DNA from: Chrysomallon squamiferum
Lineage: Eukaryota > Animalia > Mollusca
DNA: 64,000 nucleotides
NCBI GenBank assembly: GCA_012295275.1
Contig: CM022672.1
Span: 28,644,001 to 28,708,000, forward strand
Direction: 5' to 3'
The notes under the pieces are model-generated. The model did no database searches and was not told the origin of the DNA. It worked only from the letters and a program-made list of their open reading frames with translations. A program made the position numbers and the translations under genes. Below are positions 16,795-51,751 of the stretch, one piece after another; the first letter of the stretch is position 1; every line of letters starts with the position of its first letter.

Positions 16795-17842
16795 GTATCA
16801 GTATATTTATATAAATTTCTTATCAATGTTTAATTAAAATGGTTTTAAGATGATATCAGTCATTACAAATATAAACATTTGTTAATCATCGGCACAGTCC
16901 TCAAAAAATCTATTTGAATTTAGAGTATTTAGTGTAGTTTTTGTTATCCACTTGGAAAAATTAATTAATTAATTACTATAAATCACGAAGCTAGATAGAT
17001 ATATTTGATAACGCTGCTTTGTCAGAAACATTTTATTGATGCTACTGAAAATACAACAATAAAAAGGCAAAAAAACTTAAATTTACTTTGACCCCCGCCT
17101 GTAAAATCAGCGTTTCCATCGTTATCGTAACTCAGACTGGCACTTTTAATTTGCATTCAAAACCTGGTCTTGGTCTAAGTTTATCATTTTTTTTCATTCT
17201 TTCCGTCGTCGTCTTCTTTTTAAATCTTAATTAAGATTAAAACGTTGAAGGAACTTCAATATGATAAAATTACAACCAATAAAACTGGAATATTAAAATT
17301 AACACAAAATTAAATATAAATTAAAAAAAAAAAAAAATTAATTGATAAAGAACACCTTTTCTATCATAATGTATAATATGCATAATACAAGTAGTTCATT
17401 TCATCAATGTTAAGGAAGTAATAATATGAAGGAAAAAAAATACAAAAGCTTGTATCTCCAGCCAACACACAGTTCAGTTTACACACTGCAATCAGAGCAG
17501 GTTGCAGATATACCATGTACAAAAAGCACTGATGTTCATATGAATGTACAGAGTAGATCTAATGCACTTTTTAAATAGTAAGTAATCTGTTGTCTGCTGC
17601 AAATAGATGTTGATGCAGTCTGGATTTGATTTAAAGATGTATAGGAAGTATATAGTAATCTAGAGTATGCAGACTAATTTCCTTTGTATTAATAAAGGAT
17701 CATTTCATTTACATAATTTTTAATTTCTGTTCTACGGTTAGTTAATTTAACTTATAAAACAAATTATTTGATTGCACTGAAATATTTATCTTCATGTTTT
17801 TCTTATTCAGCTCATTTGAGAAATACAGAAAAGTGAGTCATA

Positions 17843-18623
17843 ATGGATAAACAGTATTCTGTGAAATTTTTCACATCATTTGTTGAAGCAATACAAAAAC
17901 TGTGCCGTGAATATTTAGACTTTGAGCAGGGTGTTGAATTGAGTGGTTACCTGGCTGTAGAAATAGACAATTTCAAAAAGGAAAGATATGTGCTTAGTGA
18001 ACTTGTTCAAAGTACTGGAAATGTTATTAGTGAGAGTTATTGCACAAAAGCTTTCAAAACACTGAGAAAAGAAATACCACCAAGAATATCAAGAGACAGT
18101 GAAAACATTACACCTAGAAAGAATAATTACAGTGTAATTCACAAACCACATAGACCACCAAAACCTGCAGAAGTTACTATTGATTTACGAGACAGCCCTG
18201 AAAGAGAGATGCCTTCTAGTTCTCCTCGTTACCAACACACTCCAAGAGGCCAATCAGTAGCAAGCCCTATGAGATGGCAAAATCGTACACCAACTACTCC
18301 AAGTCCAAATAGAATAAATAATAGATTTCCATCATCTTATGGAACCCCGCCCAGAATGAGAAGCATGGAAGTTGTAAGATCACCAAGAACCTCTCGATCA
18401 GTTAATACAGGACAGCCATCTAATCAAATCCAGCCAAGACGCATTGAACAGACATCTTTGCAGTCATGGACTCCACCACGTATTACATCTGTTAAGTCAC
18501 TTCGCAGTCCTCAGCATAATGCAGTTGTTCCGTCAAGTCCTAATCAGTCTGTAGCCGCTAGTGTTCCTAAAAAGAGAACCTCTGAATCCTCTGACTCTGT
18601 TTCATCACCTTCAGCCAAAAAAG
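17843..18623 (+). CDS. Cassette gene, constant coding exon 1: unnamed N-terminal domain plus S/P/R-rich region
   Basis: Acceptor ttattcag before 17811, ATG at 17843, 260 open codons, donor AAG|GTAATT in phase 1. Confidence 0.88.
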
Positions 18624-18782
18624 GTAATTTTTAGTATTCTTAGAATTTTGGAATACATTTTTAAATTTTAAATTATTTTTTTACCTCTTTCTTTTCATGG
18701 ATTTAATTTGTTTGATTTTTATAATCTCCTTAGATAATTGCAATTGAAATAAAGGAATACGCTTTTTTTCACATCCTTTCAG

Positions 18783-19213
18783 ATAAACTTGATGAGAATT
18801 TGGAGGCATTAATTGATCTAGCTAATATGGCCAAAGAAATTAGTAGTGAGGCACAAACAGAGACAAAAACAGATAATTCAGTAACAGAAACTTCAACAGT
18901 GACAACTGCAGCAGTTTCAGCATCTACTACAACAGCATCACAAAACCAACAAACATCTTCATCTGAAACTGTTGTCACACAAAACATCATTAGTGTGTCG
19001 TCATCTGAAGTGAAGAAAGAACAAGAAACAAATGATCCAGTTCTTGTTATTGACAATGCCAATGAAGGGGAGATCAGTTCTGGAAGTGATAGTACTTTTA
19101 ATATTAATCAGTGTCTTGAATCATTCACTCCATTGATTACAACAGACTCGGCTTCATTTTCTACAGAACAACAATCCACACCAAGTACATCATTTGAAGG
19201 GACAGCAGTACAG
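18783..19213 (+). CDS. Cassette gene, constant coding exon 2: S/T-rich linker ending in the shared phase-0 donor
   Basis: Acceptor cctttcag is phase 1 and in frame with exon 1 (..SAKK-D-KLDENLEALIDLANM..). Donor CAG|GTATGT falls after a complete codon (..EGTAVQ). Confidence 0.88.
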
Positions 19214-20319
19214 GTATGTGTTTTGTAATTACAAGTTCATATGTGAGGCTTTTAAAAAAAGGACATCGTAGTAATTACTAAAACAAAACAAATTTAAAAT
19301 TTAAATTTAAATTAATTTCCTTTTATTAGTATCCATACCATATAAAAATTAAAAACGGATTAATCATTTTTGATATGGTTTAAAATGGAGAAAAGTGTTT
19401 ACATAAACATGTAAAATTGCTAGTAGCCACTTAAAAATAATTGTCCTCTTTTTTTAAGAGCCTTATGTTTGTATTTTTAAAAAAATGAACTGTTTTGTAG
19501 TTAAATGTTTCCTTGATCAGACCATGCATTTCAGTCAGTTTTAGTGACAATAGCCAGGTAATGCCAAGCTTCCCAATTGTTTGTGACCAATCTTTAATGC
19601 TGGTATTATTACACCACATTACAAAAATAATTATTTCAGATCACTTTTCTTCATGTAAATAATCAATTATTGTACATTGCTTTTGGCCAGAACATTTTCA
19701 AAACTTGTGCATTGCATTGAAAAAAAAAGAAGAGAGAGGTCACTACTAGTTGTATGATATCTGCAGACAAACAATTTTGACAAAAAAGTTACTTTTAATA
19801 TTTACTTTATAACAAAATTTGCTATCAGTAATACATGTCTATATACTTACATTTATTTTGAAATAATTTAAATTAGATATCTGGGTTGATAAAATGCTGA
19901 AAAGATACGAATAACAGTAAGAGATAGAACCAGTATATTATATATTTTCTGAAAGGTGTAAAATTTTATTATAATTTAACTTATTTAATTGGAAGCATCA
20001 AATATCAGGAATAGAAATATCATGAATTATTACTTGATGTTATCAATTTATTAAATGTTTACTGATGCATATATGGATATACCTTTTTTTTTTTAATGAC
20101 TACTTCACATGTGACATAATGATTAATTTGATATTAAAATTGCTCAGGAAATATTATCGATTATGGAACAATAAAAATAACTGCTGATAAAAACCTATCA
20201 AAAATGAAATATATGTTGCTTACCTTATTATCAACATTCAGCTCTAGTTGTGGAGAAGTTCTTACAAAAACATGAGTTGACATCTAAATCCTGTTCGTTT
20301 CAGGGCAGATAGTAGCCCA

Positions 20320-21180
20320 AATATCTTTTGGTGGAGAACAGCTTAGATGGACATTTGAGTGGATATTGCTGGTTGTCTACCTGTATAATTGTTTTGGATG
20401 ATCTTTGCCAACAGTACAATTGGCAACAATTTTAGTTTGCTTTTCAGTCATTTTTGAGTTCAAGTAAAATGTACCGTGCAAATCATATAAATGCTCACTA
20501 CAAGAAGACACCTGAGACCCCTATCATAAAATCACCAACTGGGAAATCTTCGGACATGTTTGAATCCACATCAGTTGTGATGTATAATGGTCAGCTGATA
20601 ACGTGTCATCAGTGTGCCAGTACAAGGGATAGTTTCAATACATAGTACAGGAACAATGGTTATTGGACAGTACAGGATATCAGATACACATAAATTAATG
20701 GTATATTAACAGTTTGATTTCATTGCCTAAATTGCATGGAACAAATTAATTCATCTGCTGATTTTTTTCAAATAATTTTGCTTTGATCAAACAATTGCAT
20801 ATGCCTATCCTGTCTTTCTTTGTAATCATGAAGAGAAGTAGTACAGGCTGCTAAATTGTGTGCCCAGTACATGAAGGTTGAAACTTAAAAGAACAAGAAA
20901 ACTGAGATACGTGTGCATACGTATACATAGTATATATTTTCAGATATTTCTTTAGTGTTTAACTGCATGTGAAAGTACTTTCTGTGGTTTTAGCAAACTT
21001 GAAAATTACTGTCCTAAAGGAATGTAAAGCCAAAATTACTGTTAAATAATTTTAACAGGTAGGTTTATTGCCAACTGTGCAGTTGGCAAAGATTAGCCTA
21101 AAACAATAGACCTATCTCTGACCGACAATCTGCATTATCCATCCAAATGTCCTTCTGAGCTGTTTTCCACCAGAGAGGAT
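20320..21180. repeat. Diverged ~110-bp inverted-repeat pair, probably an old MITE; boundaries approximate
   Basis: ~20320-20430 (TGGTGGAGAACAGCTTAGATGGACATTTG...ATCTTTGCCAACAGTACAATTGGCAA) matches the reverse complement of ~21065-21180. Confidence 0.65.
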
Positions 21181-21712
21181 ACTCAGTTTAGACAGATAGC
21201 AGGCAATTAAACAGTTCCAGGTTACAAGGTAATGTTTGTATATTGTTTGAGCCAGTTAAAGTCCTTTCATTTTTATTTTATTTTATTTTATTTTTTTTGC
21301 TACCAGTGGAAAATTCCTGTCTGTAAATCCAAGTAGCAAGTTTTGAGATAAAACATTTGTTTCATATGAAAGCAAAACTCAACAATTAATATTTGTTTAA
21401 ATTTGCTGGCAATGTAGCTCACTTTTATTTATACCATTATGAAGATTTGATACAGATACTACAGATTTAAACACACACAGTGAGGTAGTAAATCTGAGCT
21501 AATAAAGTTAGATAAAATTGGTAAAGAACTACAAAAACAGGATAGCAAGAAAAACAAAAACAAAGTTAATTATTGGTTCTTTCATTCTTATAATAGAATT
21601 ATTATACACATAATCATTTCTTTTGACTAGATGCTTTGAAGTTGCTATAATTTTGTGACTTACAAGTTGCTTAATGTGAAATTTCACCAGCATTGACAAT
21701 AGAAATGATTAT

Positions 21713-22075
21713 GGGTCATTCCATGTCAAATCACCCCAAATAAAAATAAATTTAAACCCGACCGTCTCAGATTTTTATAAAACTTGGTATACTTGTTGAC
21801 TGGGATCCAGTCGGACCAGTGGTGTGGGAGATATGGCCCACCAAATTTTGATATTTTTGATAAAAATGGGTGTGACCACCAACCTTTGAACCCTCATATC
21901 TCAGGAACTACTGGGCCAATCTTCATAAAATTGGTACTGTTGAAAAGGCAATATGACAAGGATTGCAAATCTGCCATTTGGTGCTGTGGGATCCCAGTCA
22001 ACAAGTATACCAAGTTTGATAAAAATCTGAGATGGTCAGGTTTAACCCATTGGGTGATTTGACATGGAATGACCC
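21713..22075. mobile_element. Fold-back MITE with long inverted arms; a lone left end recurs at 26726
   Basis: Perfect terminal inverted repeat GGGTCATTCCATGTCAAATCACCC / GGGTGATTTGACATGGAATGACCC. A second inner inverted pair lies at ~21758-21809 and ~21988-22040. Confidence 0.85.
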
Positions 22076-24899
22076 GTATCCAAAATGAAATACCAACAGA
22101 AATTATTTGCAAAGACACCAATAATTTAATTGCTGATTTATTGTCTGTTGTTGTTTATTTATTTTTTAGCTATATAAAGCTGAAACCATGCATTTCTGTG
22201 TTTTCATTATTTGGCTCAAAAAATGTAAACCCTCCCCCCAACAAGATTCATACATGAAATTTTCAGTGAAAACTAGATTAATTTCAGTTTGTTGAAGATA
22301 TGTTTTATTCTGCTGAATAAGGATTGTAGAATAAAAAAAGTTACATTTTTATTATTAATATTTAATTGATTACCTAAAGTTTATATAATTCTTAGCAGTA
22401 TTCCAAAAGGATACCCAATCATTATCTGCAGGTAGTCCAATTCACTGAAAAATAAGTTTCTTTCACTTTCTGCTGCTGAAATGGATTATAATATCAACAT
22501 TTGTCTTTTCTTTTATTTAGGAACAAAAATATGCATTATACTTCTTGCTTCAGTTTTAGTGTTAAGGGGATATGTTTGTCAAAATCTTTATTTCTTATGT
22601 TACAGAATTGAAATTTGGAGATAATCCCCTTTTGTTAATGAGTACTATTTTATTTTTTATGACAAATGGATACTTTCTTTTTAGATTTAAAAAAACAACA
22701 TTATTGTACCCCATTTCATGAACCTGTCCAGTCCAAGCAGATATATATATCATATCATTCAAACTGCTGGTGTTCATCATACACTTGTATTTCTACAAAA
22801 TAACCGAAATTGGTCTTTGTTTACATACTTCAAAAGAAATTAATTAAAAAAAAAAAAAGATTTTCATTAATTTTTGGAAACAATAGAAAGTTGTGTAAAG
22901 TTTATATGAAAAGGAAAGTTAATTTTTCAAAAATTTTCTTTCCGTCATTTTGTAGTGTTTGTTTTTAAATATATATATTCCAAATTTGGAAACTCTAGCA
23001 CAAATAGTTAGGAAGGTAGAAAAAAGGATAGATGATAACAAAGACAAATCAAGTTTTATAAACCATATTTCCATTTGTTATGCTATAGGGGTGATGTTAC
23101 GCATCATTATTATGTAATTTACACCTGCTTTTGCAAAACACCTGAAACATTTTCTGAAAAAGTAAATTTTTTCCATTTAAACAATCTAAGTTACAAAAAG
23201 AAAGTCAAGAAATATATTTGGATATATTAACTGCACAATAAAACATAGATGTGTCTGGAATGTGATTCTGAAGTTGACAACAATTACTTAGCTAATGGGA
23301 GAAGAATTGTTTGAACTAGTATTAATTTTCTCCACAGAATAGTAGTAATAATAAAATGGACAATAACAAGTACATCTGACTGTTCACATTCCACTTATTT
23401 TCAGCTATTAGTAAGCACTTTGAAATTAATTCTTCACAACAGATTCTTGAATGCATACCTGAAAAGTTCAAAATCAAAATACAACTAACAAATTACAAAT
23501 GATAGTATATGTGTCTGATTTACTGTTAGATAATAACATTTCTGGATTGAAACTGTGCTTTAGTTCAACTGTCTGTTATTGTCTTTACTCACTAAAACTG
23601 TGAAGCAGATCCATATGATAGTTTTTACTATGTAGTGAGTTTTTGGTTATATCTACACAAGACATTTTTGGACCTGTCTCATATTTGGAGATTGTATCAT
23701 CAAGCAGATTATAGTGATCATTGGCAGAAATATTACAGGTCCTCCTTTTTTAATATTGCATCCTCAGCCTTCATGCAGTAGCAGTAAAAGACATCTCAGG
23801 ATACAGTCACAGTCATTTGTTAATTAATCAAGTTAAAGTTCATTATGAATGGCTAAAAATTACTCGTGTCATATTACTAAAAAGTAATTTTTTTTTGTTC
23901 TGTTCTGTTTAAAACAAATTTAAAAAATTGAAAAGTTTTAAATTTGGTTTTATATGGTTTTGGAAAGTGTTAAAATTTATTCTGTCAAAAAAATGTCCAT
24001 TTTTATTTGTTATTTTTTATTATTATTAAAAAACAAATTAAAGTATTAAGATAATATAACTTTTATCAAGCTAGACCATCCCTTAAGACATTCATCAATA
24101 GGTAACTAATACCTATATTAACACTAAGTAACTTTGAGGGAAATATGACAGAAACAGTATGGTTACTTATATTAGTAATGATATCATAACTTGAAAAGAT
24201 TTATCATACTGCAGTATATTTGATATCATTCTTAAAAAAACAGATACAAAAACAGGTAATTACAGGTGAGAAAAGGAAAAGATATTCAGTCAGATAATGA
24301 TTTGAATGAGAAAAAAACTTTAGCATTAGTACAAATACAGATGTATTTACAGGTAATAAATCCTTAACAAGATTGAACAGCTTTTGTGTGTGTGTCCATA
24401 TTACTGTTACTGACTTTATATATATTGAATATTTAGTGTTTGTTTTTCCTTGTTAACCAATGTATCGAGAAAAAGTTATCAAACATAGTTACATCTATAT
24501 GTCATGAAGTGAACAGGTTAGTCAATACACAGGTAAATACCTAGTTCACTTCCATTTGTATACTTTGGTATAGTCTTTGTCACAAGTCACTGTTGTCTTT
24601 ATTCTTTTGATTGGTGCTTCACGATGATTGTGTCGTAGTCCTTGTGTTTTTTCAGACATGTGACATACAATCGATTGTTGGCAAAGGATTATTTCCATCA
24701 AGACAAATCATGTTCAGCTTGTCTTATTGAATGCTTTTGTGTGTGATGGGTTGCCATTATTTGCTATGGTGACTTCCTTTTAAAACAATAACAAGTACCA
24801 TTATCATTTGTCTAACCTGCAGTTTACATTCTTCCAGTTGACTCCATTAATGAATTCTGCTGCCAAGTTACTTTAATTTTGTCAAGACTGGTGTGCTTT

Positions 24900-25375
24900 A
24901 TAGTGATTTCAAATTTATGTGTTTTTTATTTTGATTTGGCAAGATTATTGGAACAGTGCAATTGTGATTACACTTTATTGTATTAAGCCAGTCGTGGGAA
25001 AGTGGCAGTCTCCTAGAGGCAGTGCAGGAAGGATGAGATAGTCTTGTATCATGCTTGTTCATTTATCCTGAAGAAGATCATCCACCACAGTGTGAATATT
25101 GCCATATTATCTTCAGCAGTTTAAGAAAAATATATTTAGTCAAATAAAGTTGATGAAATCATTATGATTCCATCCTGAACATATTTTAAAAAATTTGATG
25201 GTGACAAAATTTACTATAAATTTTAATTTAATTAAAGTGTGTTACTTTTATTTTGATACAGCTGTTTTGTTGTGTGCTTTAATTAATTCATGAATTTTTC
25301 TAAATAAAATCATTACCATTTTTTTAATATTTTTTTTTTTTTATCTACCTTTGGTTTGACACCCAGTAGCCAATT
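24900..25375 (+). mobile_element. Degenerate 3' end of a non-LTR retrotransposon (I/Nimb-like); boundaries approximate
   Basis: Broken peptide IKPVVGKWQS..RQCRKDEIVL..ILKKDHPPQCEYC resembles the C-terminal CCHC region of RNase H-bearing LINEs. Confidence 0.55.
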
Positions 25376-25776
25376 TTGAGTTAGGTAATTTAATTATTAA
25401 TTTAAAAAAAAAAAAAATTCAAAGGCTGCAGTGAAGTTTTTACTTTATATATGATGCATTAATATTTTTAATTTTTAATAGATGTATAAACAAACATTGA
25501 TAAGTTACAGTATGTACTTAAATATTTACTTTTTATCATTTTTTTTTATTTGATGCATAACCCATCAGATTTATTATAAATAGTGCCTCATAGATCATAC
25601 CTGGAAGTTTTTAAAAGTTTCTTATTTGTAATTTAACCCTTTAAAGGAAAGGATGTTAGCCATTTAGTTTTGGATTTGTTATTTGAAATTAAAGCCATCG
25701 TTTTAAAACAGGTAATGGAAATCAAAGATTAGTGTTACAAGCTTAAATTCTAAGCTTTCCTGTTTAATCTTTGTAG

Positions 25777-26139
25777 ATGGATCAGTCACACACTGGAATT
25801 CAAAATGAATCACTGATATCCAAAGATGTCATCAAATGGTCTTTAGAGACTTTAAAGCCTGTGCAGAAGGAGCTGTTTTTATGTGATTCTTGTGGTCGGT
25901 CATTTATTAACAAGAGTGGCTTGAACAGTCACTGGCACTCAACACATGCAAACAAAGAGCGATATACTTGCCACATATGTTTATCAACATTCATTCAATA
26001 TGCAAGTTACCAAGATCATTTTAATCTCCACAAGAATATTCGACCCTATAAATGTTCAAAATGTGGTAAAGCTTTTTTCAACAAGGGACCTTTGACAGCT
26101 CATGTAAAAACCTGTGGTACAGCAATCAGTAGACCATAA
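25777..26139 (+). CDS. Alternative terminal exon A1: three zinc fingers (C2H2, C2H2, C2HC)
   Basis: Acceptor ctttgtag|ATG in phase 0. Encodes CDSC..HWHSTH, CHIC..HFNLH, CSKC..HVKTC, then stop. Confidence 0.85.
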   Translation: MDQSHTGIQNESLISKDVIKWSLETLKPVQKELFLCDSCGRSFINKSGLNSHWHSTHANKERYTCHICLSTFIQYASYQDHFNLHKNIRPYKCSKCGKAFFNKGPLTAHVKTCGTAISRP

Positions 26140-27957
26140 TTAAATTTTTATCCTGTAGTGTGCATTTTACTGAAATTTGTTAATTTCGGAGAGAGGATAT
26201 ACAATTATTTTTGCAGTTGAGATATAAATATGATTTTCATTTTCCCTAGCTGCTTATATTATTTGTGAACTTCTGATAGCAAACAATTTTTACAAAAGTT
26301 TCATATTGCCTAATCAGATGCAAAATTAGCAATAACTTTTTATGCAAGTAGATTTTGGAATCTATTTTATATTTATGCATGTTTTGCAGAAACACTCTGC
26401 TTCAAATTACATTATTTAAATGCAGATACTTTAATGCCTGAGGTTTTTTGGGGGGTGGGGATCAAATGTTTATAATATAATTTCCAGGAAGTCATTTGAA
26501 ATGAAATGAAAATTATTATAGTTTGGAGTTTTATAAATTTGTGCTGTTTACATACACAAAATATTATTTTTGGAATTTTTAATTTTTAAACATTCTTTAT
26601 ATATATATTGAACTTTTGTGATATTTATTTTTCAGTAAAATAACTTTTTTTCTATTTTTGACAACTGTGATCGAAACTTTTGGTAATTTTTAATGATTTG
26701 CTTTGATATGAACAGTTATGCATTAGGGTCATTCCATGTCAAATCACCCAGTAAAATAGATAAAGTTGTAATTATACAAATTCAGATTTTGATAATATCT
26801 ACCACCAGACCATTCTTAAAAATTTAGATGTTGCTGGAAAGAAAATTCCATAAGATATTTGTGATTTTGTTGGCCCATAGAAGGAAAAATGTGACTTCAA
26901 AATTTTGATAAAATTGAAATCAATCAGGATACAACCTTTGAATGAATTGACAAAGAAATACCCATTCATGTTATATGTGGGTAAATTATAAACCATGTTT
27001 TATTCATATATTTCAAAATAATCAAACCAGTAATAAAGACAAATCACATTTGACAACACTGACAGATGTTTTTTAATATGTGGCAAAACAATTGTTATGA
27101 TTTCTGGTCCACATGGTAAATTCCCATCATTTTCTGCAATTATGAAAAACACTGGATTTACCTGTTTATATGTATATGTTACTGTTGAATCCAATAAAAA
27201 TGTTAAATTTAATTTAAAAAAAAAAAAATAATAATAAAGAACATGAACCAAAAATATAAATATCTTTTCACATTTCAGTGAAGACTACTGGATTCTTTTT
27301 AATGAAAACATGTAAACATTTCAAATAAATTAATAAAAATGCATTTTATCATATTTATTTTTTAAAATTTGTCTTTGTTAATTTAATGAAAATGATATTA
27401 AGCTGATGCAAATTCCTTAAATTCTGTCATTCCCTGAGGTGTTTCAGGAGATCTATATCTGTATTAATATTTCTGGTGTCAATCCTTCTATATTTTACAA
27501 GTACTAATATATATTATTTTTATTAATTTCTGTGTGTTCATTTCATATATTAGTTGGTTTAAATAATTTAAATACTTGATGTTAATTTGTTGATTGAAAG
27601 ACATTGTTTACTTTAAACACACACACACAGGTACAGAGAGAGAGAAGAAAAACACAAGTTTTATCGGGAAAATACTGGCAGTTTTAATTTGGATAAAAAG
27701 ATCTGAAATTGAATAATTTTTTATACTTGTTTTTATTTATTTTATTTTTCTTGTATTTTTATTTATTTTATTTTATTTTTTATTTTTTATTTTTTTGTTG
27801 AATTGTGATAAACAAATACTTTTCATTTAAAAACAAATTATTGTCATCTTATTTTGTTATTCTTTTACTATTATTATTAATTTTTTTTTATTTTTTTTAA
27901 ATAAATAAAGCTTCATTAAAAACAAATAAAATTTAACCTTTGATTGGTCCATTTCAG

Positions 27958-28600
27958 ATGGGCACCAATCAGACCATGAAGCAGGCACCTATGTTATCTG
28001 CTTTAAGTGAGGACAGTGAGGCAGCCAGGCCAACAAGTAATATTTGTTACCTTTGTAAGAAATCATTTTCTACGCAGTTAGAACTAGAGAAACATTCTAC
28101 TTGAAATCACAGCTTACGCTGCCCCCATTGTCCTTTAATTTTTATATGAACATTAGATTTAGAAAATCATCTTGCTCAGGAGCCTCAGCACAACTGTCAT
28201 GTTGACAAAAAAATGTGGATTTGATTTTGTTAGTGATACAGATAAGAGAAAATGAAGTGAAGGTCCACAACATTTATAGCGTCATCTTGCCTAAAACAAA
28301 GAACAGGGGCCATGTACTAGAGAATATTAATAATGAAGATTTGTTAACTTGTTGTGATTGTAACATGATTTTCTTTTCTCAGAATGGTCTTTTACTTCAT
28401 GAACAAAAGTGTAGAAGTGCTTCTAATTACTTTATTTGTCCTACTTATGGTTTCTGCTGTGGTGACAAAAAGACATTATCTGATCATATTAAAATTATTC
28501 ACAAGAAAGTGGTGTACCTGTGTAATATATGTGGTGCAAAGTACAGCTGGAGCACTGGTCTTGCAAAACACAAAAAAACATCATTTCAAAACATAGTATT
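27958..28600 (+). pseudogene. Decayed multi-finger terminal exon A2
   Basis: Acceptor atttcag|ATG in phase 0. Reads CYLCKKSFSTQLELEKHST*NH and CPHCPLIFI*TLDLENH with two in-frame TGA. Later fingers (CCDC, CNICGAKYSWSTGLAKH) are in another frame. Confidence 0.75.
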
Positions 28601-29216
28601 AAGAATTTTGGCCTTTATTGATCTTTATAGCCCAAACAAAATACCACATTTATTACTGAGACAACCTACTTTATTAACATTTAAAGTTCTTAGTATATAA
28701 CGAATTATGAAAAACATTGTTATTCTTTTCATTTTGTTTTCTTCATTGCATTTGTGTTTTTGGTTTTTCATTTTTATAGACATTACATGTTTTTGTAATA
28801 AGAAACAAAAGTATTCTATTATGTCAACAATGTTAACCAGGAATTATATTTCTGAAACTGCTAAATTATCCGTAAAAAGTATTTTTATTATAATTTTTTT
28901 TATATAACCCTTCAGTCATGAATAATTTCAGATATTAAATAAATAGGTTATGTTGCTAATGTTATATTTATTAAAACAGAAACTAAGTTTAACAATTGTT
29001 GTTTATCATTTTATTGTGTTAACAGTTTTCAGGATGTGTTAAAAACTAATGTGTATAAACTTTAAAATGTATTTAAAATGTTGTTAAATAGCAGTAATAT
29101 TAAAAATCATTTGCACATGAATCAGCACCAGTCGGTGTTTAGTTTATTCCTAAATGACTAGATTAATTTATTAATCTGGCCAAACCCTGAACCAATTTTG
29201 TTAATTTGTGTTCTAG

Positions 29217-29528
29217 ATGGAGATGAGCCGCAATGATCAGGATAGATGGGGACTGAAGATGAAAACAAGAATTGGTACAGGAAAACATAATGTATATTTC
29301 ACAAGGCCAATTTTGCAATCAAAGACACCATGTGTGTGTAAAATATGTGGCAAGCGGTTTTCATTTGTGAGATACCTGAAGGATCATTTAAAAATGCGTC
29401 ATGCCTCAGATGATACACTTCCATACGCTTGTCAATGTGGGAGACAGTTTAGATACAGAGCTGCATTAGCCAAACATCGTACTAAGGAATGTCCAGTTAA
29501 TACACTAAATTCTTTTAAGATAAGATGA
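29217..29528 (+). CDS. Alternative terminal exon A3: two zinc fingers
   Basis: Acceptor gttctag|ATG in phase 0. Encodes CKICGKRFSFVRYLKDHLKMRH and CQCGRQFRYRAALAKHRTKEC. Confidence 0.85.
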   Translation: MEMSRNDQDRWGLKMKTRIGTGKHNVYFTRPILQSKTPCVCKICGKRFSFVRYLKDHLKMRHASDDTLPYACQCGRQFRYRAALAKHRTKECPVNTLNSFKIR

Positions 29529-29653
29529 AGAAAAAAAACAACTCAGTAACAAGTATAATATATAAACATTTTGTTAGAAAAGTGGCCAGTCCTATTAAAC
29601 AACACTTGCTGATACTGCTGGACATGCTCAACAGTTTTTATCTTTGATTTCAG

Positions 29654-29812
29654 CTTTGGCCAAGGCAAAGATACAAACAGTACACAGAGGATGATATCAG
29701 AAAGGCCATTCAGCTGGTTCAACAGAAAAAGTTGAGTGTTTTGAAAGCTAGCATTATCTGCAGAGTTCCACGTGAGACGCTGAGAATTAGACTTAAATCA
29801 TTGCAACAGTGA
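29654..29812 (+). CDS. Alternative terminal exon A4: Pipsqueak-type HTH (absent from the ORF track)
   Basis: Acceptor gatttcag in phase 0. Encodes LWPRQRYKQYTEDDIRKAIQLVQQKKLSVLKASIICRVPRETLRIRLKSLQQ*. AATAAA ~55 nt after the stop. Confidence 0.85.
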   Translation, partial: LWPRQRYKQYTEDDIRKAIQLVQQKKLSVLKASIICRVPRETLRIRLKSLQQ

Positions 29813-31065: not shown

Positions 31066-32968
31066 CAGGGGTGGCCAAACTTTTTTACCAGAGGGCCAAA
31101 TTTGCAACTTTCTTGCCACTGGAGGGCTGGATTAAATGAAATTTACGTAAAATTTGTCGTAACTGGTTGCCATCTTTATTAAAATATATATTATTGTAGT
31201 AGAATAACAATAAATAACACCATCTTGTTTACACTTGTATTTAATAAAAGGTTTATATATCAATGAGATAAATGCAACTGTCCACAATTTTGAACAAGCC
31301 TTTTAAAGTCTGGAGTAAAACTAGTTGTCGAAACTTTCATAATTGCTTGTAAATTTGCATCTGACAATACTGATCTGTTTTTTGACTTTGTTCGATTTAA
31401 GCATGAAAAAGTCTGTTCACAAATATAAGTTGATCCAAATATACACAGCATCCTAGCAGCAAAACCTCGTAGATTGATAAACTTTTCAGCAGGCAAATAT
31501 TTGAAAAATTCTGCCAACGGCATATTCCTAAACTTTATTTTCAGCTCATTATTAGCTTGTAGATCTATTAGTTCCAGCTGAAGAACATCAGGGGCTGTCT
31601 CAATTTCTGTACTGAAGGGTGAAACAAGTATATTAAATGATGAATCCATTACTCTGAAGTCTGAAAATCTTCTTTGGAATTCTTGTTTCAAGATGCAGAG
31701 TTGATTGCTGTATTTTTCAGCAAGTTTACTATCTACTGTTGCCTTCCTTAGCAAAGAAAAATGAATAAAATTACATTCTGATATCTGTTTGGCAAAAAGT
31801 GAGAGCTTTGCCTCAGAAGCTTTTACTTTGGTGTACATATCATGCACAAATAATCCTTTTCCTTGCAATTCCAAATTTAGAGAATTGAGCTTTTCAAACA
31901 TTTCAGTGGCAAACATAAAATCACAAAGCCAGTAATCATTTTTCATCTTCTCTATAAAATCACATTTCATTTGTTTGATATCAAGGAAAAGGAGAATTTC
32001 ATCTCTTAGTTCAAAGACTCTTCTTAGAACTTTCCCATGACTAAGCCACCGAACACTATTGTGATATAGCACATCTTTATATTCAGTCTCAATATCATCC
32101 AGTAATGTCTTGAATTGTCTGTGTGATAATGGTCTGGATCTGAATAGATTAACTACTTCAACTACAGGACGTATCACATGATTAAAATCCAGAGCTGACT
32201 TGCATAAACTTTCTTGATGAATGATACAATGAAATTTCCATATTTCATGCTGAGGACAGTTTTCTTTAATCTTCTTTTTTGTAGGAGGCTAATCATGCCT
32301 TTGTTTTTCCAGTTAGAGCAGGTGCACCGTCAGTAGTGATACTCACCAATTTATTCCACGGCAGGCCAGCCTCCTCCACACACTTTATTACACATTTACA
32401 CAGGTCTTCCCCCGTAGTTGTGCCTTTTAAAGGTTCAACTGATAACAACTCCTCTGAAATTGTAAAATCTGACTTGATACCACGTATAAATATCATGAGT
32501 TGTGCAATGTCCTGAACATCATTGCTTTCATCCAGAGCTAATGAAAACCACATGAAATCAGTGCAAGCAGTGTGAAGCTGTTGGGACAAATCTTTGCTGA
32601 TATCTTGTACCCTTCTCATAACTGTATTCCTTGATAGTGCAATATTCTCAAATTTATTCTGTGCTTCTGGACAAAGTATGCGTGCCGCATCCACAATGCA
32701 GTCTTTTACAAATTCTCAATCAGAAAAATGTTAGCTACTTACGTCATGGTTGGCAGACTGTTCTAAAAATAACGCTGCAAGGGCATTTATTCTAAAAATA
32801 ACAACGCTTGCCACAAGCTACTGCTAGTAGCAGCCAGCGCTGTTGCACTGCTTGTTCACAGTGGTAAATATGGTGCTTGGAAAAAAACAAGGCAAGGTGT
32901 TTGGCGGGCCGGATGAAACAGGACTGGGGGCCGGATGCGGCCCGCGGGCCGTAGTTTGGCCACCACTG
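31066..32968 (-). mobile_element. hAT (Charlie/SPIN/GTF2IRD2-like) transposon, 5'-deleted, transposase frameshifted
   Basis: TIR CAGGGGTGGCCAAACT / AGTTTGGCCACCACTG. 8-bp TSD AGCTATAT / ATCTATAT. ORFs 32293-32694 (FSLALDES, SITTDGAP) and 31260-32177 (VRWLS, FGSTYICEQTFS). Confidence 0.93.
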
Positions 32969-33097: not shown

Positions 33098-35194
33098 TGT
33101 GGTCAAAGCTGTCTATAATGGCCATCCGTGGGACTTCACTAGATTGACCATTACAGACAGGTAACCATTATAAATATGTCTTAGATTTAATATGAACAAT
33201 AATTTTTAATTTATTTTATTTTATAATTTTTTTTTTTAAGGCTATGTTAACATTTGCAGCTGAGAAATAAAATGCTTTTGTGAGAAATATCAATTTTATT
33301 TTATAACAGAATTTCCATGTTTGTAAATGTGATGCAATCTGGGAAAACCCTTCACATTAAAATTTATTTTGCTTTTCAAAACTTATCCGAAAACGAAAAT
33401 GGAAGAAAAATGTGTTTATAAAACTGCTTTATACTGACATAATACTTAAACCAGTTTGTGAAAAGTATCCATATTTATAAAAATGTAATCATAGTAAACT
33501 GACACCAAATAAAGATGTGCAAAATTTATTAAAAAGACGTTAAACATAAAACAGAAGATTTTACACGCACACACACACATTCAAACATAACATTCAAACA
33601 TTCACTGCTTTGTGGAACAGTCATGTTCACTGTAAGCCCATTTGTTTGATGGTGGAGTTGCACTTTCTTCACCTGTTTCACCCATAACATCTCATCTTAT
33701 TTGTTCTTTAGGAAGTGGACATGCAAAATCCTGTTTTAATACATGATACAAGTACCACTGGCGCTTAATACTGAGCCCATTTGTTTTGATCTCATCTGGA
33801 ATATTGTCCTGCAAGACATCAATATTCACTTTAAGCAGTTCCTGGTATGCAGATTCAGTGTCTAAATAAACATTTAATCTGATTTCTGTACTGTCTTTAT
33901 TAAAACAAAAAATAATGGAATGTTTTAATTTTTGTCACCTTCCTGAAGTACTAGCCAAGGAAAGCTGACCAGTTAGGCACAGGCACTAAAACTGTACCAC
34001 TTGAGCTGTGTCTTGCAGGCTGTCAATTTTAGATCGGCAGAACTTTCTTTTGACCAATCCAAAAGACCAATGAGAAGAAAATCTGGTATGATCTTTCAGC
34101 AGAAGACTCATTGTTACTGAGTCATGTCAGTCAGTGATAACTCCACAGCATGAACCACGTGACATATGAATTGTCATTTTGTCCTGCACAGTTGTCAGCA
34201 TGTAGGTGCATGTGTTTTTATCCCAAGACATAGTTTTCCAAGTAATAATGAAGAAAATTAATAACACTATTAGCTCCTTCCCCACTCTGTACTAATTCAT
34301 CCAATAAAAATGTTACCTGCTTTGGCAGTACTTTCACAGGATTCACCACATATTGCACATTTTCTGGCTTTTCTGAGTGTTTTTCCTTTTCTGCTTCTGA
34401 CTTTTTTGCTGCCTTTCTGATACTTGGCTTGGATCTCTGATCTAATCTAATTGTCTCAACCTTCTCCAATGAAAACATTAACAAACTTGGATCTGGAGAG
34501 TAGTAATGACAGTTATATTGAAATTTTTTCAGTTGTTATTGTTCTGTGTTTGTTAGCAGTGGTGGAAGAATCTCTGTGATATTGTTGAATACAGATGCAT
34601 CTTCAGCTGAAATAAATAATTAAAAGATCTACCAGTATACTGAAGAAATCACACTGCTAAGCAGAACAATCAGTTATAGCATTTAATTCAAGCTAACAAC
34701 ATTATTACCACATTTGGTAATTTTTAATTATTATATCATGTTTTAAAAGTATCAGTAAAAATAAATGAATAATTTGTATGTAATTTATATTATTTAAAAT
34801 TAATTAAAAATCAGTGTTGGTTGATGTTTATGTCTGACTTAAAACTTCAGAACACCTAACATAACACACTGTTTGGTTTTTCTCAACTAGCTAATGTAAT
34901 TACACAACATGGTCAAAGATGTGAACAACCAGTGATAGCTCAACTTTTAACTGCTTTGAGTGCAACAACTGAGATTCCATTGAATTGTGACCCTGATTCA
35001 TTGTAACATCGTGTCAGAGAAGTTACTGACTATATTCATGTTTTTCAATTATGATCGGTGGAATTTGCCAATTCTGAAGTGCTGTGACCGTCATAGCAGG
35101 TTCTGTTGACAATTTTCCATGAAAATATATAGGTTGTTTAAAGAAGGAAATGCTTTAAGGGGGATTTATGGTGACCATTTGACCAGTTTCGACT
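33098..35194. mobile_element. Possible old pogo-like MITE ends enclosing the Sola-like remnant
   Basis: GTCAAAGCTGTCTATAATGGCCA (~33102) and GACCATTTGACCAGTTTCGACTG (~35172-35194) are weak inverted counterparts, heavily diverged. Confidence 0.3.
33326..34600 (-). mobile_element. Decayed DNA-transposase remnant (Sola-like); boundaries approximate
   Basis: Minus-strand QVTFLLDE..GEGANSVINFLHYYLENY..G*KHMHLHADNCAGQNDN and a downstream GLSIKRQWYLY, with multiple stops. Confidence 0.55.
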
Positions 35195-35698
35195 GTTTGT
35201 GTCTATATGTATGTATGTATGTATATTTATTTGTATGTTTATTTATATGCTGTGTGTGTGTGTGTGTGTGTGTGCATGGCAGTTAATTAAGATAGATATC
35301 TTTAACCTTACTTCATCTGATCAGTGTTATAACATAAAAATGGAAAATTTGTTACAAAAAAACATTAATAAAACTTTTTTGTTGTATGTAATGTTTATAG
35401 GGTCATCCTAGTAAGTTATTATTCAAATAATATTTTTTTATTAAGTGTTGATAGTTGCATTCACATGCATGCACAAAAAACATATAAATACAAAAAAACA
35501 AAAAAAAAACAATCTTTATGTAAGTGAGAAAAGCAGCTGGTTCCATTTTTAATAAAGTTTCTTTGAGTTGGTTTGTTGATATTTATGAATTAGTATTATT
35601 TATAAATGTAAATTCAGAACAGGTTTTGAACAAAACTGAAAATAAAGGCTTTCTGTTGAATATTCATCAGTGTTTAGTTATTATTCCTGTCCTTTCAG

Positions 35699-35881
35699 TC
35701 TTGGCCATTGTCAAGGCGGCGGTCTTCTTACCTGCAGTACACAGCACAAGACCTGAGGAAGGCCATTCAGTTAGTGGAGCAGAGAAAGATGACTGTGTCT
35801 AATGCAGCCAAAAAATTCAGAATTCCATTGAGAACATTGTATTTCCGGATTCAGCAGTCAAAACAACAGTACTCTAGATAG
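35699..35881 (+). CDS. Alternative terminal exon A5: Pipsqueak-type HTH, paralogue of A4 (absent from the ORF track)
   Basis: Acceptor cctttcag in phase 0. Encodes SWPLSRRRSSYLQYTAQDLRKAIQLVEQRKMTVSNAAKKFRIPLRTLYFRIQQSKQQYSR*. Confidence 0.85.
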   Translation, partial: SWPLSRRRSSYLQYTAQDLRKAIQLVEQRKMTVSNAAKKFRIPLRTLYFRIQQSKQQYSR

Positions 35882-37013
35882 ACAAATCAAGAAAAATAAT
35901 AAGTACAAAACAGCTACAAATAAACAAAAAAGCAAAATAAATAAGAGAGAGAGAAAGAGAAAAATGAACCAGAAATGTTTTCAAAATGAATTGTTATTGA
36001 TGACATAATTTGCTTTGTTTTGTATATTAGTAATGTTCATGAGAAATGAATGTTAGTTACATACAATACAGTAATTTAGGAAGATAAAATCCTTCCTTTC
36101 AGAGTAAAAACATTTTATATATTTATTCATAACAGCAGGATTGGGCAAGTCCAGCAACCTGGTTACATACCTGTGTGTTACAGTTCTTCTCATTTGAAAT
36201 CTACTTCACAAGGATCTTGAAAGTGTTTAAAGATATTATGTGATAGGTTCCTGTTGTGTAATTTTTAATGAATGGTAACCATTCAAGCATAAAAAAAAAA
36301 AAATTTTAACATTAATGAATCATCTTTGAGTATTTATTCATTAACAAGACTGAAATAAATTTTAAATAATCAGAGTCAAAGAAAATAAAAATGTGGTTTG
36401 ATACAGTAATATGTGTTTTGTTTTTTTATCTTTCCATAATTTTAGTTTTATAAGCTGTTCTTTTCTTAGTTGAAGGATTAAAAATACTATGAGAAAGAGT
36501 CAAGATCAAATTTATCTACACTGTTTTGTTAGTGTAAATTTCAGATTAGAGTACACCTACATTTTCAGCAGATTATCACATCTGTTACGTCTAAAAATGA
36601 CAAATTTGGAAATAAAGTCAACATTAAAAAATGCATTTAAAAAAACAAATATTGTTGAAGCATACAAATGAATCATACAATTTCATAATAAATTGAAGCT
36701 ATATAAGCAGAGGCACTCACAAAATATTTTCCTTACAAATTTACATGGTACCAACAGTTGTTTTAAACAGGGAACATATTTAAAATTAAAATATTAATAT
36801 GTGTTCAGTGTTAATTTTTGGACATTTGTACATCAAACAAAATGACTTAAAAGGGTTAAGGAATTACATTCTACTCTTTATGATGTTAGGTTTGTAATAC
36901 AAGTATGTAATTTTGAAACCTGTTATAAAAGATAGTTGTTACATGTTTATCTTGGGAGACTGATTTCGGGATGACAGTGTTTCACATGACTTGTCTTTTT
37001 TCTAAATCTTCAG

Positions 37014-37454
37014 GTGTCTCAGTCTGATAGTAGGTATGATTTGGGGGCTCCAGATTTTCCACTGTCAGCTCAGGTTTTGGATACTTCTCTGCAAAACAGT
37101 AGAAAAGAAGAGACTGAGTCTGTCCAGCAGTTTGATACACATCCATCTAACTTGCAAAATACAAATCCAGAAACTGTTTTATTGACAAGAGGACGGACAG
37201 TTCTCAGTGTTGTAGAAGAAAGTCAGCTGGTGCAGTTAATCAAAGAACGAATAGAAAATGAAGGCAGGCTGAGTAGATCTGAAGTGCTACGATTAGCTTC
37301 AGAATTTGCAGTGAGTTTAAAGAGACGAGAAACAACACATGGATTTAGCAGACAGTGGTATTACAGTTTCTTAGAAAGATGGCCTGACCTACAGCAGATG
37401 CTTAATGTCACTAAATGGACAGGAGACCTAAGACTGCAGAGAGATGCAAAGTAA
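37014..37454 (+). CDS. Alternative terminal exon A6: CENP-B/Tc5-type HTH
   Basis: Acceptor atcttcag|GTG in phase 0. Encodes RGRTVLSVVEESQLVQLI..G.LSRSEVLRLASEFA..FSRQWYYSFLERWPDL. Confidence 0.85.
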   Translation: MSQSDSRYDLGAPDFPLSAQVLDTSLQNSRKEETESVQQFDTHPSNLQNTNPETVLLTRGRTVLSVVEESQLVQLIKERIENEGRLSRSEVLRLASEFAVSLKRRETTHGFSRQWYYSFLERWPDLQQMLNVTKWTGDLRLQRDAK

Positions 37455-38769
37455 AAACTGAAACTTGAAAATGTGTTTTTTTAATTTTTTAAAATTATTT
37501 TAGTTTTTCTGAGCTAAATAGTTTTGAAGCACATTTACATTAATTTTATTTTCTGATGTCATATCACAAAAATCTTCCAGACTTTTCAAGAATTTATCTC
37601 TATTTATTTAAATACCAGCATAACATATGAAAGTAATTACAGATAAAAAGTTACAAACACACCACAAAAATAAAAATGAAAATCTTCCAGCAACACATAT
37701 GTTACACTTAACTGATAATTTTTAAAGAAACTGTATAGCCAGGATTGTTATTTTTGTATGTCTGTCTGAGATGTGTTTATTTAAGCAACAACAAAGATTA
37801 GTTGCAGTTTTCTCTCTTTAAAAAAAAACTTAAATAAAGAACATCTAAAAAGATTATTTCTTTCAACAATTTATTTAAATTTTTTATCCAGTTTTGTATG
37901 ACTGGAAATTGTTTCATTATGACTCTGTTTACAGATGTTTTATTACTAATCAAAAAAAAAAAAAAAAATTGTGATTATTAATTTACAATATGCATAAATG
38001 TTAAAATTTTGTTTCAATCAAAATTATTTGTGAATTATTTCCTGTTGCTCTTTAATCAGGTCAAAAACTAAAATATTGGATTTTAATGGTCATATATTTA
38101 TACTACAGTTGAGTCTCAAAATTATAAAAGGTGTATGCAAAAAAAAGAAGGAATGACTGAAAACAAAATATAGCGAAAGTGAAGAATTTAAAAGAAAAAC
38201 AAATGACTCAGAATGCACTGAAAGAATTAGATAAATGATATTGATCAGTAATTAAACAAATTTGGTATGTTGACAACTTTAAACTGGGTTAAAATAGGAT
38301 AGCTTGAATACTGAGTGATGTATATAAATATACAACCATCTGTTACATCCATAAAGGAATGTCAAAACAAATTATTTTTGTATTTTCAGCATTGTTAAAA
38401 CCATTAGTAAGTTTGAGGGGTTTTTAATTTGCTTATTTCTAAAGTGTATATCTTGGCAACATCATCAAAATAATTTTATTGTGAATCAAATGAGATATAG
38501 TTATGATCCATGAAGAGACCCTCATTAATATTAGTTTGATTTCAAACAAACTATAAACAGTATCTTTTATGGCACACATTGCATCAACTAGTTTAAACTA
38601 CTTTAAATTAAAATTCATGCATGGGTGCATTGATATTGTGAATTTGCTTATTATAGGTTAAAAGCATGGTTTTAAAGTATTTTTTTAGATTGGTTTAAAG
38701 AACAAGCAATATATCTGATTATAGACAACAGAAAACCCCTGTAACACTATGTTTTTGTTGATTCTACAG

Positions 38770-45823: not shown

Positions 45824-46009
45824 CATTTCCTGTGGAAAATGCACAAGACAAAATCTCGAGCACAAGTGCAGAGAGAATATAGAGAAAGAAGAAAGAGACG
45901 TGAAGGAGAGAATTTCTTGTTCAAAGAAAGAATGAGAATTCAAGCCTATCGTCGCAAAGCAAAGGAAGACTTAAAAAAATTCAGAAATCAGATTCTGGAA
46001 ATGAACTAA
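45824..46009 (+). CDS. Alternative terminal exon A9: unnamed basic helical module, paralogue of A8
   Basis: Acceptor cttttcag in phase 0. Encodes HFLWKMHKTKSRAQVQREYRERRKRREGENFLFKERMRIQAYRRKAKEDLKKFRNQILEMN*. Confidence 0.78.
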   Translation, partial: HFLWKMHKTKSRAQVQREYRERRKRREGENFLFKERMRIQAYRRKAKEDLKKFRNQILEMN

Positions 46010-47046
46010 ATCTTTCAGAAGTGATTGTTTCCTAACACAGGAGAGCAAAATATGTAGATGAGTTTTTCTGATGAAAATTCTATTCACTTGCAACATTTCT
46101 AACTGCATCTAAACTTTAGCTGAACAAAAAATGTTTACAAAATGCATTACAAATGAACATTAATAACATGTAATTTATAAGATATTTTTAAAGTTATCTG
46201 TTGTGAAATCCTTTCTGTTATATTTTAAATTAATAGCAAAAGAATAATATATGTGTTTGTGTGTATTTTAGATTAAAATGGCAACAAAAATTACAGTGCC
46301 AGTGAATGAGTGAAGAATAAGAAGGAAAATTGAAAAGATGACAGAAACAAACACAAATTTGTGCTTGCAAACAGAAATAACTTGTTAATAATAAATTAGT
46401 GGAACATACATAATTCTGTGTTTTTTGTTTGTGTGTTTGTGTTTGGAAATTATTATTAATTCACATAATGTGGAGATTTTTACTTAGAAAAGAACAAAAT
46501 TTTATGTGATTATAGAAAATAGTTTTCCATTTTATTTATTTTATTTGTATTATACAAGATATTTTGATTTATATTATTACTGTTAAAGACAGGAGCATTG
46601 TTAAGAACTTGAGATAATTATGAAATTAAGTAACCACCAGTTATTACAAAATATTATAGATAAATACGTGATACAAGTTTAGATAATGTCAGTGCCAGGA
46701 CTATTAAATTACTAAAGTAACTGATGATATGTGACAACAACATAAATTTTTTATAATACTTTAATGTGGAGGTTCTCAGTTTTTGTGACCTCTGCTATAA
46801 AGTGGTACAAGCTTCTCAGATTATAAATTGTATTGAATGTTTTATAGACATCTATGGTTTTATTCATTAAAATATTTTGTAAAACAAATTTTATTTAATA
46901 TTTTACTTAGTTTGCATGGTGGAATGTTTTGATATTAATGGGTTGAGAAAAATTATTGATAACTGCTGATGGATGTATTGTATACAAAACACATTTATCA
47001 ACAATTACAAAAAATTCTATCTGACATTTTAATGATTAATTTTCAG

Positions 47047-47099
47047 AATCAGTCAGATGCAGAGACTCAGCATGAACTAAATGAGAAGACTAAAAATAA
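47047..47099 (+). CDS. Predicted 53-nt internal exon, phase 0 in and phase 2 out
   Basis: Acceptor aattttcag with upstream CTGAC. Open frame NQSDAETQHELNEKTKN+AA. Donor AA|GTAAGC. Joins in frame to the exon at 47667. Confidence 0.6.
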
Positions 47100-47666
47100 G
47101 TAAGCTGACATTTGTTTATAAACAAGCTCCTATGTTTTTGGTACTATAAAAACAGTGTTGATGGTGTTCTGTACAATTTTTCATTATTAGATAGTTGTAA
47201 ATAATAAAAGAATATTAATTATGAAAACAAAATAAAATAATACTAAATAAAAATCATACAAATTTATTTTATTATTACTTTTACAGATTTAAGTTATTTA
47301 TTATTGAAATTTAGTTAAAATTATTATTCTTTTAAAAAAAAGAAATGTATTTATGTATACATCCCAACAGTCACATATATATATGCTTGCACAGAACATG
47401 ATCAATTTGACATTTACCAGACACACTTTCAATTCTAAAAGATAATTTTGGGGGATCATTTTATAAATTTATAATGTATCCAAAACAGAAATATTTAATT
47501 TTGACTTTAAAATAATTTTCCTAATGTTAATGATATTAAACTCTTATTTAAAACAATCATAAATCCTTTACACAAATTTCACAAAATTAAATCTATTTGC
47601 TCAATTGATTTTCTGTTGACAGCAAAATAGAAAAGTAAGACATAATTTTTATTTCATTTTTTTCAG

Positions 47667-47880
47667 ATGTTCACAGAAGAACAAAGAAAACAGAGAGTTT
47701 TCTCAAGTTAAATACAAATGCTATATTTGTTCTAATCAATACAGCCAAAGTTCAGCCCTCTATCGACATTACATGCGGCAACACAAAGGGAGACAATTTG
47801 TGTGTAAAATATGTGGACAGAGCTACAGTAGAAAATATGGTCTTGACCAACATCTCAAAAGAACAGGCCATGTTAGTTAA
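47667..47880 (+). CDS. Alternative terminal exon A10: two C2H2 fingers, phase-2 acceptor (absent from the ORF track)
   Basis: Acceptor ttttttcag|A TGT. Encodes CYICSNQYSQSSALYRHYMRQH and CKICGQSYSRKYGLDQHLKRTGH, stop 47878-47880. Confidence 0.82.

Positions 47881-51701: not shown

Positions 51702-51705
<4 letters not shown>

Positions 51706-51750: not shown

Positions 51751-51751
<1 letters not shown>

Follow-up and report, generated by a model that had tools for sequence, protein, structure and literature searches.

A window of 64,000 nucleotides from the snail Chrysomallon squamiferum (GenBank assembly GCA_012295275.1, contig CM022672.1, positions 28,644,001 to 28,708,000 of the forward strand; positions below are numbered from its first letter) was found to hold a plus-strand gene with one beginning and several alternative ends. 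Its two-exon head is probably spliced from a single donor at 19213 to alternative last exons, through ordinary selection among 3' acceptors, and every end supplies its own stop codon. The products are likely a set of transcription regulators with a common head, predicted to bind partners, a common predicted SUMO site, and different tips that likely bind DNA. The first-pass annotation, made from the letters of the window, had inferred a transcription-factor diversification system analogous to Drosophila lola and mod(mdg4) and built on a different constant domain. This core inference was borne out by multiple ends in RNA, by a head that is not BTB, and by relatives annotated as isoform series. 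The gastropod family of one-head-many-ends regulators to which the gene belongs, based on an unnamed domain, is real and apparently undescribed, its pattern being already visible, unnamed, in the isoform lists of RefSeq.

The constant head and its donor

The constant open reading frame, 17843-18623 plus 18783-19213, was reproduced at the coordinates first proposed for it: translation of the window yields 404 codons without a stop, closing on a phase-0 donor (CAG/GTATGT), and both introns are bounded by GT and AG. Behind the head domain runs a linker of low complexity (18% Ser, 11% Thr, 9% Pro), in which a psi-K-x-E motif appears as VKKE at residue 337. This motif, by its consensus a predicted SUMO site, is found in the linkers of 23 of 24 family representatives, as against 1.55 in shuffles, and in the Gigantopelta genes an acidic patch and a hydrophobic patch mostly follow it. 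Where exons 1 and 2 meet, five of the 11 paralogs checked have a short basic motif, which may be a nuclear signal. The head domain occurs in one copy only, no second copy being found within the 64-kilobase window. Upstream of the coding exons, the plus strand at 16690-16800 is richer in CpG and holds a CACGTG box and a AAAATGGAGG motif, the latter a start-site motif; the stretch is a candidate for the promoter and untranslated first exon of the gene.

AlphaFold2, supplied with 104 sequences, modelled the head, some 75 residues long, with confidence as a helix (residues 5-24) on a sheet (30-41, 45-56, 61-68), with a predicted local distance difference test score of 83.8. The BTB fold is mostly helical, unlike this helix-plus-sheet model, and Pfam gave no BTB match at E<=1 in any of 15 family heads or in either constant exon. 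The head is not a BTB domain, which agrees with the earlier claim of a constant region lacking one. No Pfam family was common to more than two of the 15 heads, a PDB sequence search with the head returned nothing at E<=10, and Foldseek with the head model returned nothing at E<=0.001. The best VIA comparison, to a pseudopilin, gave a Z of 5.1 over 69 aligned residues at a root-mean-square deviation of 3.1, which lies within the range of chance arrangements. The ESM Atlas returned bacterial clusters only, at 0.83 or below and uninformative, and nothing for one divergent member. The missing Pfam and PDB matches do not establish a new fold. These comparisons bore on the known N-terminal domains of C2H2 factors (ZAD, SCAN and KRAB) as well as on solved folds.

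Alternative end exons and their joins in RNA

Nine end exons had been proposed to follow the shared donor directly, and all nine were recovered: each begins after a YAG and opens in phase 0 for the length given in Table 1 (acceptors 25777, 27958, 29217, 29654, 35699, 37014, 38770, 43840 and 45824). Seven of the ten ends pass the curated cut-offs of Pfam, namely zf-C2H2 at 25777, 29217 and 47668, HTH_psq at 29654 and 35699, and HTH_Tnp_Tc5 at 37014 and 38770. For these seven, the expectation that one of the three families would be found on each cassette holds. It falls short at 27958, not an intact module, where a broken finger scores 18.4 against a cut-off of 25.2, and at the two basic ends, 43840 and 45824, which have no Pfam match at E<=1. 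C2H2, Psq, CENP-B/Tc5 and basic ends are all present, but to call them four unrelated classes goes too far, as the Psq and CENP-B helix-turn-helix domains are both traced to pogo-type transposases in passages of PMC10027918.

The tenth end, 47667, has a phase-0 frame of 14 amino acids only, its two fingers sitting in the +1 frame. A small adaptor exon had been invoked to reach them, and a suitable candidate is present at 47047-47099; overlooked was a phase-0 acceptor at 47623 (score 7.2), which provides a second cis route to the same fingers.

Acceptors were scored by an untrained rule, under which the best-scoring acceptor in the open stretch was in phase 0 in all eight ends tested; 27958 was scored apart and reached 6.4. 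For the six Pfam-defined ends among these eight, the chance of such agreement is about (1/3)^6, or about 1 in 700. Since an acceptor with an open frame is by itself common, 12 of the 82 acceptor-like sites in 19214-48000 being followed by a phase-0 open reading frame of at least 45 amino acids, it is the domain content that carries the argument.

RNA was available from four runs of one study (X1-X4), as contigs placed on 17700-37600. The head intron 18623/18783 is spliced in all four runs. The join 19213-27958, at the predicted GT..AG, is displayed in X2 and X3, and the constant contig of these two runs breaks off 3 letters past 19213, as it would where transcripts branch. In X1 and X4 the constant contig continues for 403 and 407 letters, which are placed nowhere in 17700-37600; it therefore runs into a different end. 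If that end is within the window, the continuation would best fit 38770, because 38770 shares the ATG but not the fourth letter with 27958. By these contigs, donor 19213 is joined to more than one end in RNA. Furthermore, an X3 contig carries 24 unplaced letters ahead of 29215, which would be the geometry of a join to 29217. Contigs in two runs start exactly at 29217, whereas a donor ending in G would blend with the intron and place the start at 29215; such starts hint at a second upstream donor not ending in G. At 17872-17893 contigs with three other letters occur in all four runs. One of these letters turns Ile17 into the Met that several paralogs have, so the RNA includes heads of paralogs.

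Several ends deserve separate mention. End 27958 is the start of a decayed multi-finger exon: a TGA at 28102 precedes the second zinc-binding His, and stops and frameshifts continue to about 28700. An assembly error as the source of this stop was ruled out, an RNA contig over 27955-28633 being identical to the window. The candidate end 29654 sits inside the apparent 3' untranslated region of the 29217 form, and RNA contigs cross it unbroken in all four runs. Splicing of 35699 (Psq) onto 37014 (Tc5), which would rebuild a two-part pogo domain, was considered and rejected, as 35699 contains no donor scoring 6 or more. A PDB search with 38770 gave no match. Ends 43840 and 45824 represent a duplicated basic segment, and 45824 is weakly like the ends of two Gigantopelta paralogs. 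The STPR domain of FMBP-1 was looked for in both, with no Pfam match at E<=1 and no STPR chain among six weak PDB matches for 45824, though short helices of low complexity may escape such searches. Over the hAT element at 31066-32968, several substitutions, insertions and deletions separate the RNA contigs from the window sequence, so that other copies or alleles exist.

Table 1. Coordinates of the head exons, end exons and associated elements in the window
Feature	Position	Strand	Remarks
First coding exon	17811..18623	+	ATG 17843; head domain residues 1-76 (about 17843-18070), then Ser/Pro/Arg-rich linker
Second constant exon	18783..19213	+	Ser/Thr-rich; VKKE SUMO-type motif 19010-19021; terminates on shared phase-0 donor
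End exon, three C2H2-type fingers, 120 amino acids	25777..26139	+	zf-C2H2 (Pfam); RNA contig cover
End exon, broken finger exon, 48 amino acids, stop within finger 1	27958..28104	+	Join to 19213 in two of four RNA runs
End exon, two C2H2-type fingers, 103 amino acids	29217..29528	+	zf-C2H2 (Pfam)
End exon, Psq helix-turn-helix, 52 amino acids	29654..29812	+	HTH_psq 27.5 bits, cut-off 20.4
hAT transposon insertion in array, not an end exon	31066..32968	-	16-nucleotide terminal inverted repeats; 8-base-pair target duplication matching at 7 of 8; broken transposase
End exon, Psq helix-turn-helix, 60 amino acids	35699..35881	+	HTH_psq (Pfam); 45% identical to 29654
End exon, CENP-B/Tc5 helix-turn-helix, 146 amino acids	37014..37454	+	HTH_Tnp_Tc5 22.9 bits, cut-off 22.2
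End exon, CENP-B/Tc5 helix-turn-helix, 125 amino acids	38770..39147	+	HTH_Tnp_Tc5 26.6 bits; 34% identical to 37014
End exon, basic Arg/Lys/Glu-rich segment, 53 amino acids	43840..44001	+	No Pfam match
End exon, basic segment, 61 amino acids	45824..46009	+	47-52% identical to 43840
Candidate adaptor exon, 53 nucleotides, phase 0 to phase 2	47047..47099	+	Acceptor score 5.5, donor GTAAGC; predicted from sequence
End exon, two C2H2 fingers, phase 2	47667..47880	+	zf-C2H2 (Pfam, 47668)
Second array, 11 two-finger exons	49371..63579	-	Acceptors 63579, 62780, 61762, 60308, 59891, 58467, 56982, 54837, 53695, 50593, 49553

A working scheme can be proposed for the plus-strand gene. Choice of the 3' acceptor in cis would be coupled to 3'-end formation, and the remaining ends would be used as well. 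The head, a helix on a sheet of three to four strands, would oligomerise as BTB does in lola and assemble complexes, the linker would be sumoylated, and the ends would bind DNA and so choose the DNA sites. Ends are likely gained and lost in the array by a birth-and-death process, since it contains duplicated pairs (two Psq, two Tc5 and two basic ends, at 34-47% identity), a broken end and a hAT insertion, and the neighbouring array a tandem duplication. A new tip would arise whenever a DNA-binding fragment, whether or not derived from a transposase, landed downstream of an acceptor in the right phase.

The facing array and the gastropod family

Downstream, the minus strand carries a second array, overlooked at first pass as was the gene family; nine of its exons are in phase 2; the other two, 49553 and 53695, are decayed duplicates, frameshifted and out of phase. 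LOC121382870 is alone among the eleven larger Gigantopelta genes in that its first variable residue is only Q or H (14 Q and 1 H of 15), the pattern demanded by a phase-2 donor. Ends of LOC121382870 are reciprocal best matches of 63579, 61762, 60308, 59891, 58467 and 49553 at 44-74% identity, so that single ends are conserved between species. One further end of this gene matches the duplicated pair 54837/50593 at 56%, 62780 and 56982 best match another paralog, and the nine intact minus exons all score highest on the profile of LOC121382870 ends. Judged by phase and by these matches, the minus array likely supplies the ends of a paralog that faces the plus-strand gene, is of the LOC121382870 type and would have its head beyond position 64000. 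The minus array is an independent check that the one-head-many-ends architecture is real. Its exons were also considered as trans-spliced ends of the plus-strand gene and rejected, since nine of 11 have the wrong phase and they match the ends of the other paralog.

Within the minus array, a tandem duplication with a period of about 4.2 kilobases links 49309-51124 and 53461-55405, which are 78-87% identical, and ends 50593 and 54837 are 97% identical in protein. A stretch of 304 base pairs, 48765-49068, equals 53003-53306 at 100%, far above the rest of the duplication, and reflects either recent conversion or an effect of assembly. At the other side of the window, a GPSM/Pins-like gene on the plus strand occupies about 5500-11040, with TPR repeats by Pfam, GoLoco-like repeats and a stop near 11039. 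No Rfam family was found in the window.

The first 90 residues of the protein match 74 of 134 candidates, comprising 61 RefSeq proteins of Gigantopelta aegis and 13 of Haliotis. A head profile gave 259 representatives at E<=0.001 among 1.84 billion searched, and in 308 of the 312 proteins fetched the head domain begins no later than residue 35. Of 30 proteins looked up, those with an organism assigned came from gastropods only: Gigantopelta, Haliotis, Patella, Pomacea, Batillaria, Littorina, Nucella, Aplysia and Physella. Grouping of the fetched proteins by shared prefix revealed 16 Gigantopelta genes with at least two isoforms and at least 145 distinct ends (19, 16, 15, 14, 13, 12, 11, 9, 9, 8, 7, 3, 3, 2, 2 and 2 per gene), plus four single models; these counts are lower bounds, since one gene, for example, is represented by 15 of its 25 listed isoforms. 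Internal pieces are common to some of the ends. All of the approximately 20 Gigantopelta genes are on sequence of one size, 91,665,651 bases, three Pomacea genes likewise on 34,494,602, and five heads, including P0075 and the neighbour-type P0082, on 668,156. Equal sequence sizes, and these solely, suggest that the family genes are clustered on one chromosome.

The gene in the window shows the features of this family, exemplified by Gigantopelta LOC121382587: an N-terminal head, a linker with psi-K-x-E, and alternative ends. Its head is 97% identical over 77 columns to that of LOC121382587, and the closest relative is P0075, at 73% over 198 amino acids. In the head tree the gene falls into no supported group, with unsettled bootstrap and long branches, and a search with exon 2 alone gave no match among 1751 candidates. 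Mixed folds within single genes were found to be common in the family (C2H2 with Psq; BEN with Psq and C2H2; C2H2 with Tc5; C2H2 with DUF3504), and its further end domains are DUF3504, FLYWCH, CENP-B_N, zf-Tnp_2, zf-C17orf113 and BEN. The diversity of folds in the plus-strand array, at first regarded as unusual, is not so, as fold mixing recurs in several paralogs; in one Gigantopelta paralog, Psq and CENP-B helix-turn-helix domains stand together in single end exons.

Some members have ends of other designs. Haliotis and Pomacea members (P0061-P0074, P0221) end in DUF3504 of the ZMYM2/QRICH1 type, as do all 13 Haliotis matches, and DUF3504 may be the oldest end of the family. Gigantopelta LOC121383032 (P0092, P0251-P0257) has a nested design, in which the first half of a BEN-like domain is shared and the second half is an alternative exon. 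Gigantopelta LOC121384041 (P0011, P0012) has two mutually related ends of about 125-140 amino acids without a Pfam family, which represent one more end domain that lacks a name.

Competing explanations and comparison with insect arrays

Several observations weigh against splicing of one head to many functional ends. The sole displayed join has a short side of 23 letters at 92% likeness and was graded weak by the alignment tool, and the end it reaches, 27958, is both the best supported and the broken one. Another 18 joints are undisplayed, and no join is displayed for 25777, 29654, 35699 or 37014; this is not evidence of absence, since 18 joints are hidden and contigs lose rare forms. Introns also have contig cover, at a mean depth of about 1-10 in most bins, so cover was not counted as evidence. 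The RNA placement covers 17700-37600, and all four runs come from a single study. The two basic ends gave no match that would support DNA binding. Among relatives, the RefSeq isoforms are predictions (RefSeq models are built partly on RNA alignments), P0075 is a first-exon gene call, and an annotated ortholog with isoforms was looked for in the protein collection and not found.

That the downstream exons are separate small genes or open reading frames with their own starts, the constant frame having one fixed last exon, is hardly credible. Five of the ten ends do have an ATG directly after the acceptor, and the two contigs beginning exactly at 29217 could be read in the same way, yet the other five have no ATG there, a shared phase would be needless, two or more distinct sequences follow the constant part in the contigs, and the annotation of relatives takes the form of isoform series. 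A quite unlikely alternative is that only two or three ends are in use, the others being remnants of transposons and duplicates, dead or in decay, which happen to retain an acceptor. It draws on 27958, broken yet spliced, on the decayed, out-of-phase duplicates 49553 and 53695, on 37014, which barely exceeds its cut-off, on the hAT element in the array, on the majority of ends without a displayed join, and on the low contig depth over 35699 and 37014. Decay of this extent is opposed by the paired ends, which at 34-47% identity still keep open frames, phase and domain scores, by the one-to-one conservation of neighbour-array exons in another species, and by the Psq and Tc5 ends, none of which runs on in frame into a transposase core, each of them stopping.

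Trans-splicing of some or all joins, as in mod(mdg4) and lola, is likewise quite improbable; the join most open to it is that of 47667 to the phase-2 head of the facing paralog. The phase of 47667 is that of the minus array and not of its own, its finger spacing (HX4H, with a six-residue link) recurs in seven of the 15 ends known for the ortholog of the neighbour, and the profile of that ortholog gives it its highest score, 50.0 bits. The margin is small, however (50.0 against 48.5, 46.0 and 44.2, true members scoring 68-75), and both cis routes, through 47623 and through the adaptor at 47047-47099, are available. The contig starts at 29217, as a hint of another donor, and the ATG at the beginning of five ends would also suit trans-splicing; contigs cannot separate cis from trans joins, and for the nine other ends, collinear and on the strand of the head, cis splicing suffices. 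A wider reading, in which about 20 chromosome-clustered lola-like genes were built independently on a new oligomerisation fold, their heads mix into a combinatorial code with well over 100 DNA-binding tips, the arrays keep taking up DNA-binding fragments of transposases as last exons and facing neighbours share ends such as 47667 by trans-splicing, is rather unlikely as a whole. Cis splicing from donor 19213 to alternative last exons is the preferred explanation.

Passages of PMC11426971 and PMC13490949 describe lola as a gene with a TTK-type BTB domain and 20 isoforms, 17 of them with different C-terminal C2H2 fingers, and TTK-type BTB was, according to the former, not found in Mollusca. Like lola, the snail gene joins constant N-terminal exons to one of many last exons, has ends of one to three fingers, and places a long low-complexity linker behind a compact N-terminal domain. 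It differs in a head without BTB and in ends that mix C2H2, Psq, CENP-B/Tc5 and basic segments; moreover, trans-splicing was shown for lola, while the RNA of the snail gene is available as contigs, which cannot phase alleles. For mod(mdg4), the same sources give 31 alternative last exons, all of them trans-spliced; most encode FLYWCH, and some are encoded by the opposite strand. As in mod(mdg4), a single head goes with numerous ends that differ in fold, both strands of the region carry end exons, and FLYWCH serves as an end in a Pomacea member of the snail family. In contrast to mod(mdg4), the opposite-strand exons of the snail are in another phase, match a separate paralog and need no trans-splicing; BTB is absent, and the system is a family of about 20 genes and not one locus. 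One donor leading to alternative last exons of shared phase is thus found here as in the lola, mod(mdg4) and TTK group, though not displayed for every end, and DNA-binding domains are predicted by Pfam in seven of the ten ends. In its working the system resembles lola and mod(mdg4), but with a head that is not BTB it falls outside their group.

Transposon-derived factors of molluscs (HTH-Psq, CENPB, FLYWCH) were reported in passages of PMC10027918 as expanded and lineage-specific in gastropods. The DNA-binding classes are the same, but there they were counted as separate genes, the word isoform being absent from the main text, whereas here they are alternative ends of one gene. Passages of PMC7895826 make no mention of the family, and no description of it was found in the literature, subscription journals and supplements lying outside the search. 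The same head and the one-head-many-ends pattern are present in the RefSeq models of Gigantopelta LOC121382870, LOC121382587, LOC121383300 and LOC121384041 and of Pomacea canaliculata LOC112564035, whose isoform numbers reach X26. These models are automatic and bear the names of genes to which they are not related ("zinc finger and BTB domain-containing ... -like") or the label "uncharacterized"; they have no family name, and none is a full-length ortholog of the gene in the window.

The one-head-many-ends design is treated, in passages of PMC11426971, as a speciality of arthropod genes with TTK-type BTB. That vetigastropods, limpets, caenogastropods and heterobranchs have the same architecture on an unrelated, unnamed domain suggests that it evolved convergently. 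Gene counts of zinc-finger and transposon-derived factors in molluscs may take isoform ends for genes, or miss them. In conclusion, the family offers a concrete route by which DNA-binding domains of transposases may be turned into regulators of the host, and it makes tractable the question whether arrays of this kind are accompanied by trans-splicing in animals other than insects.

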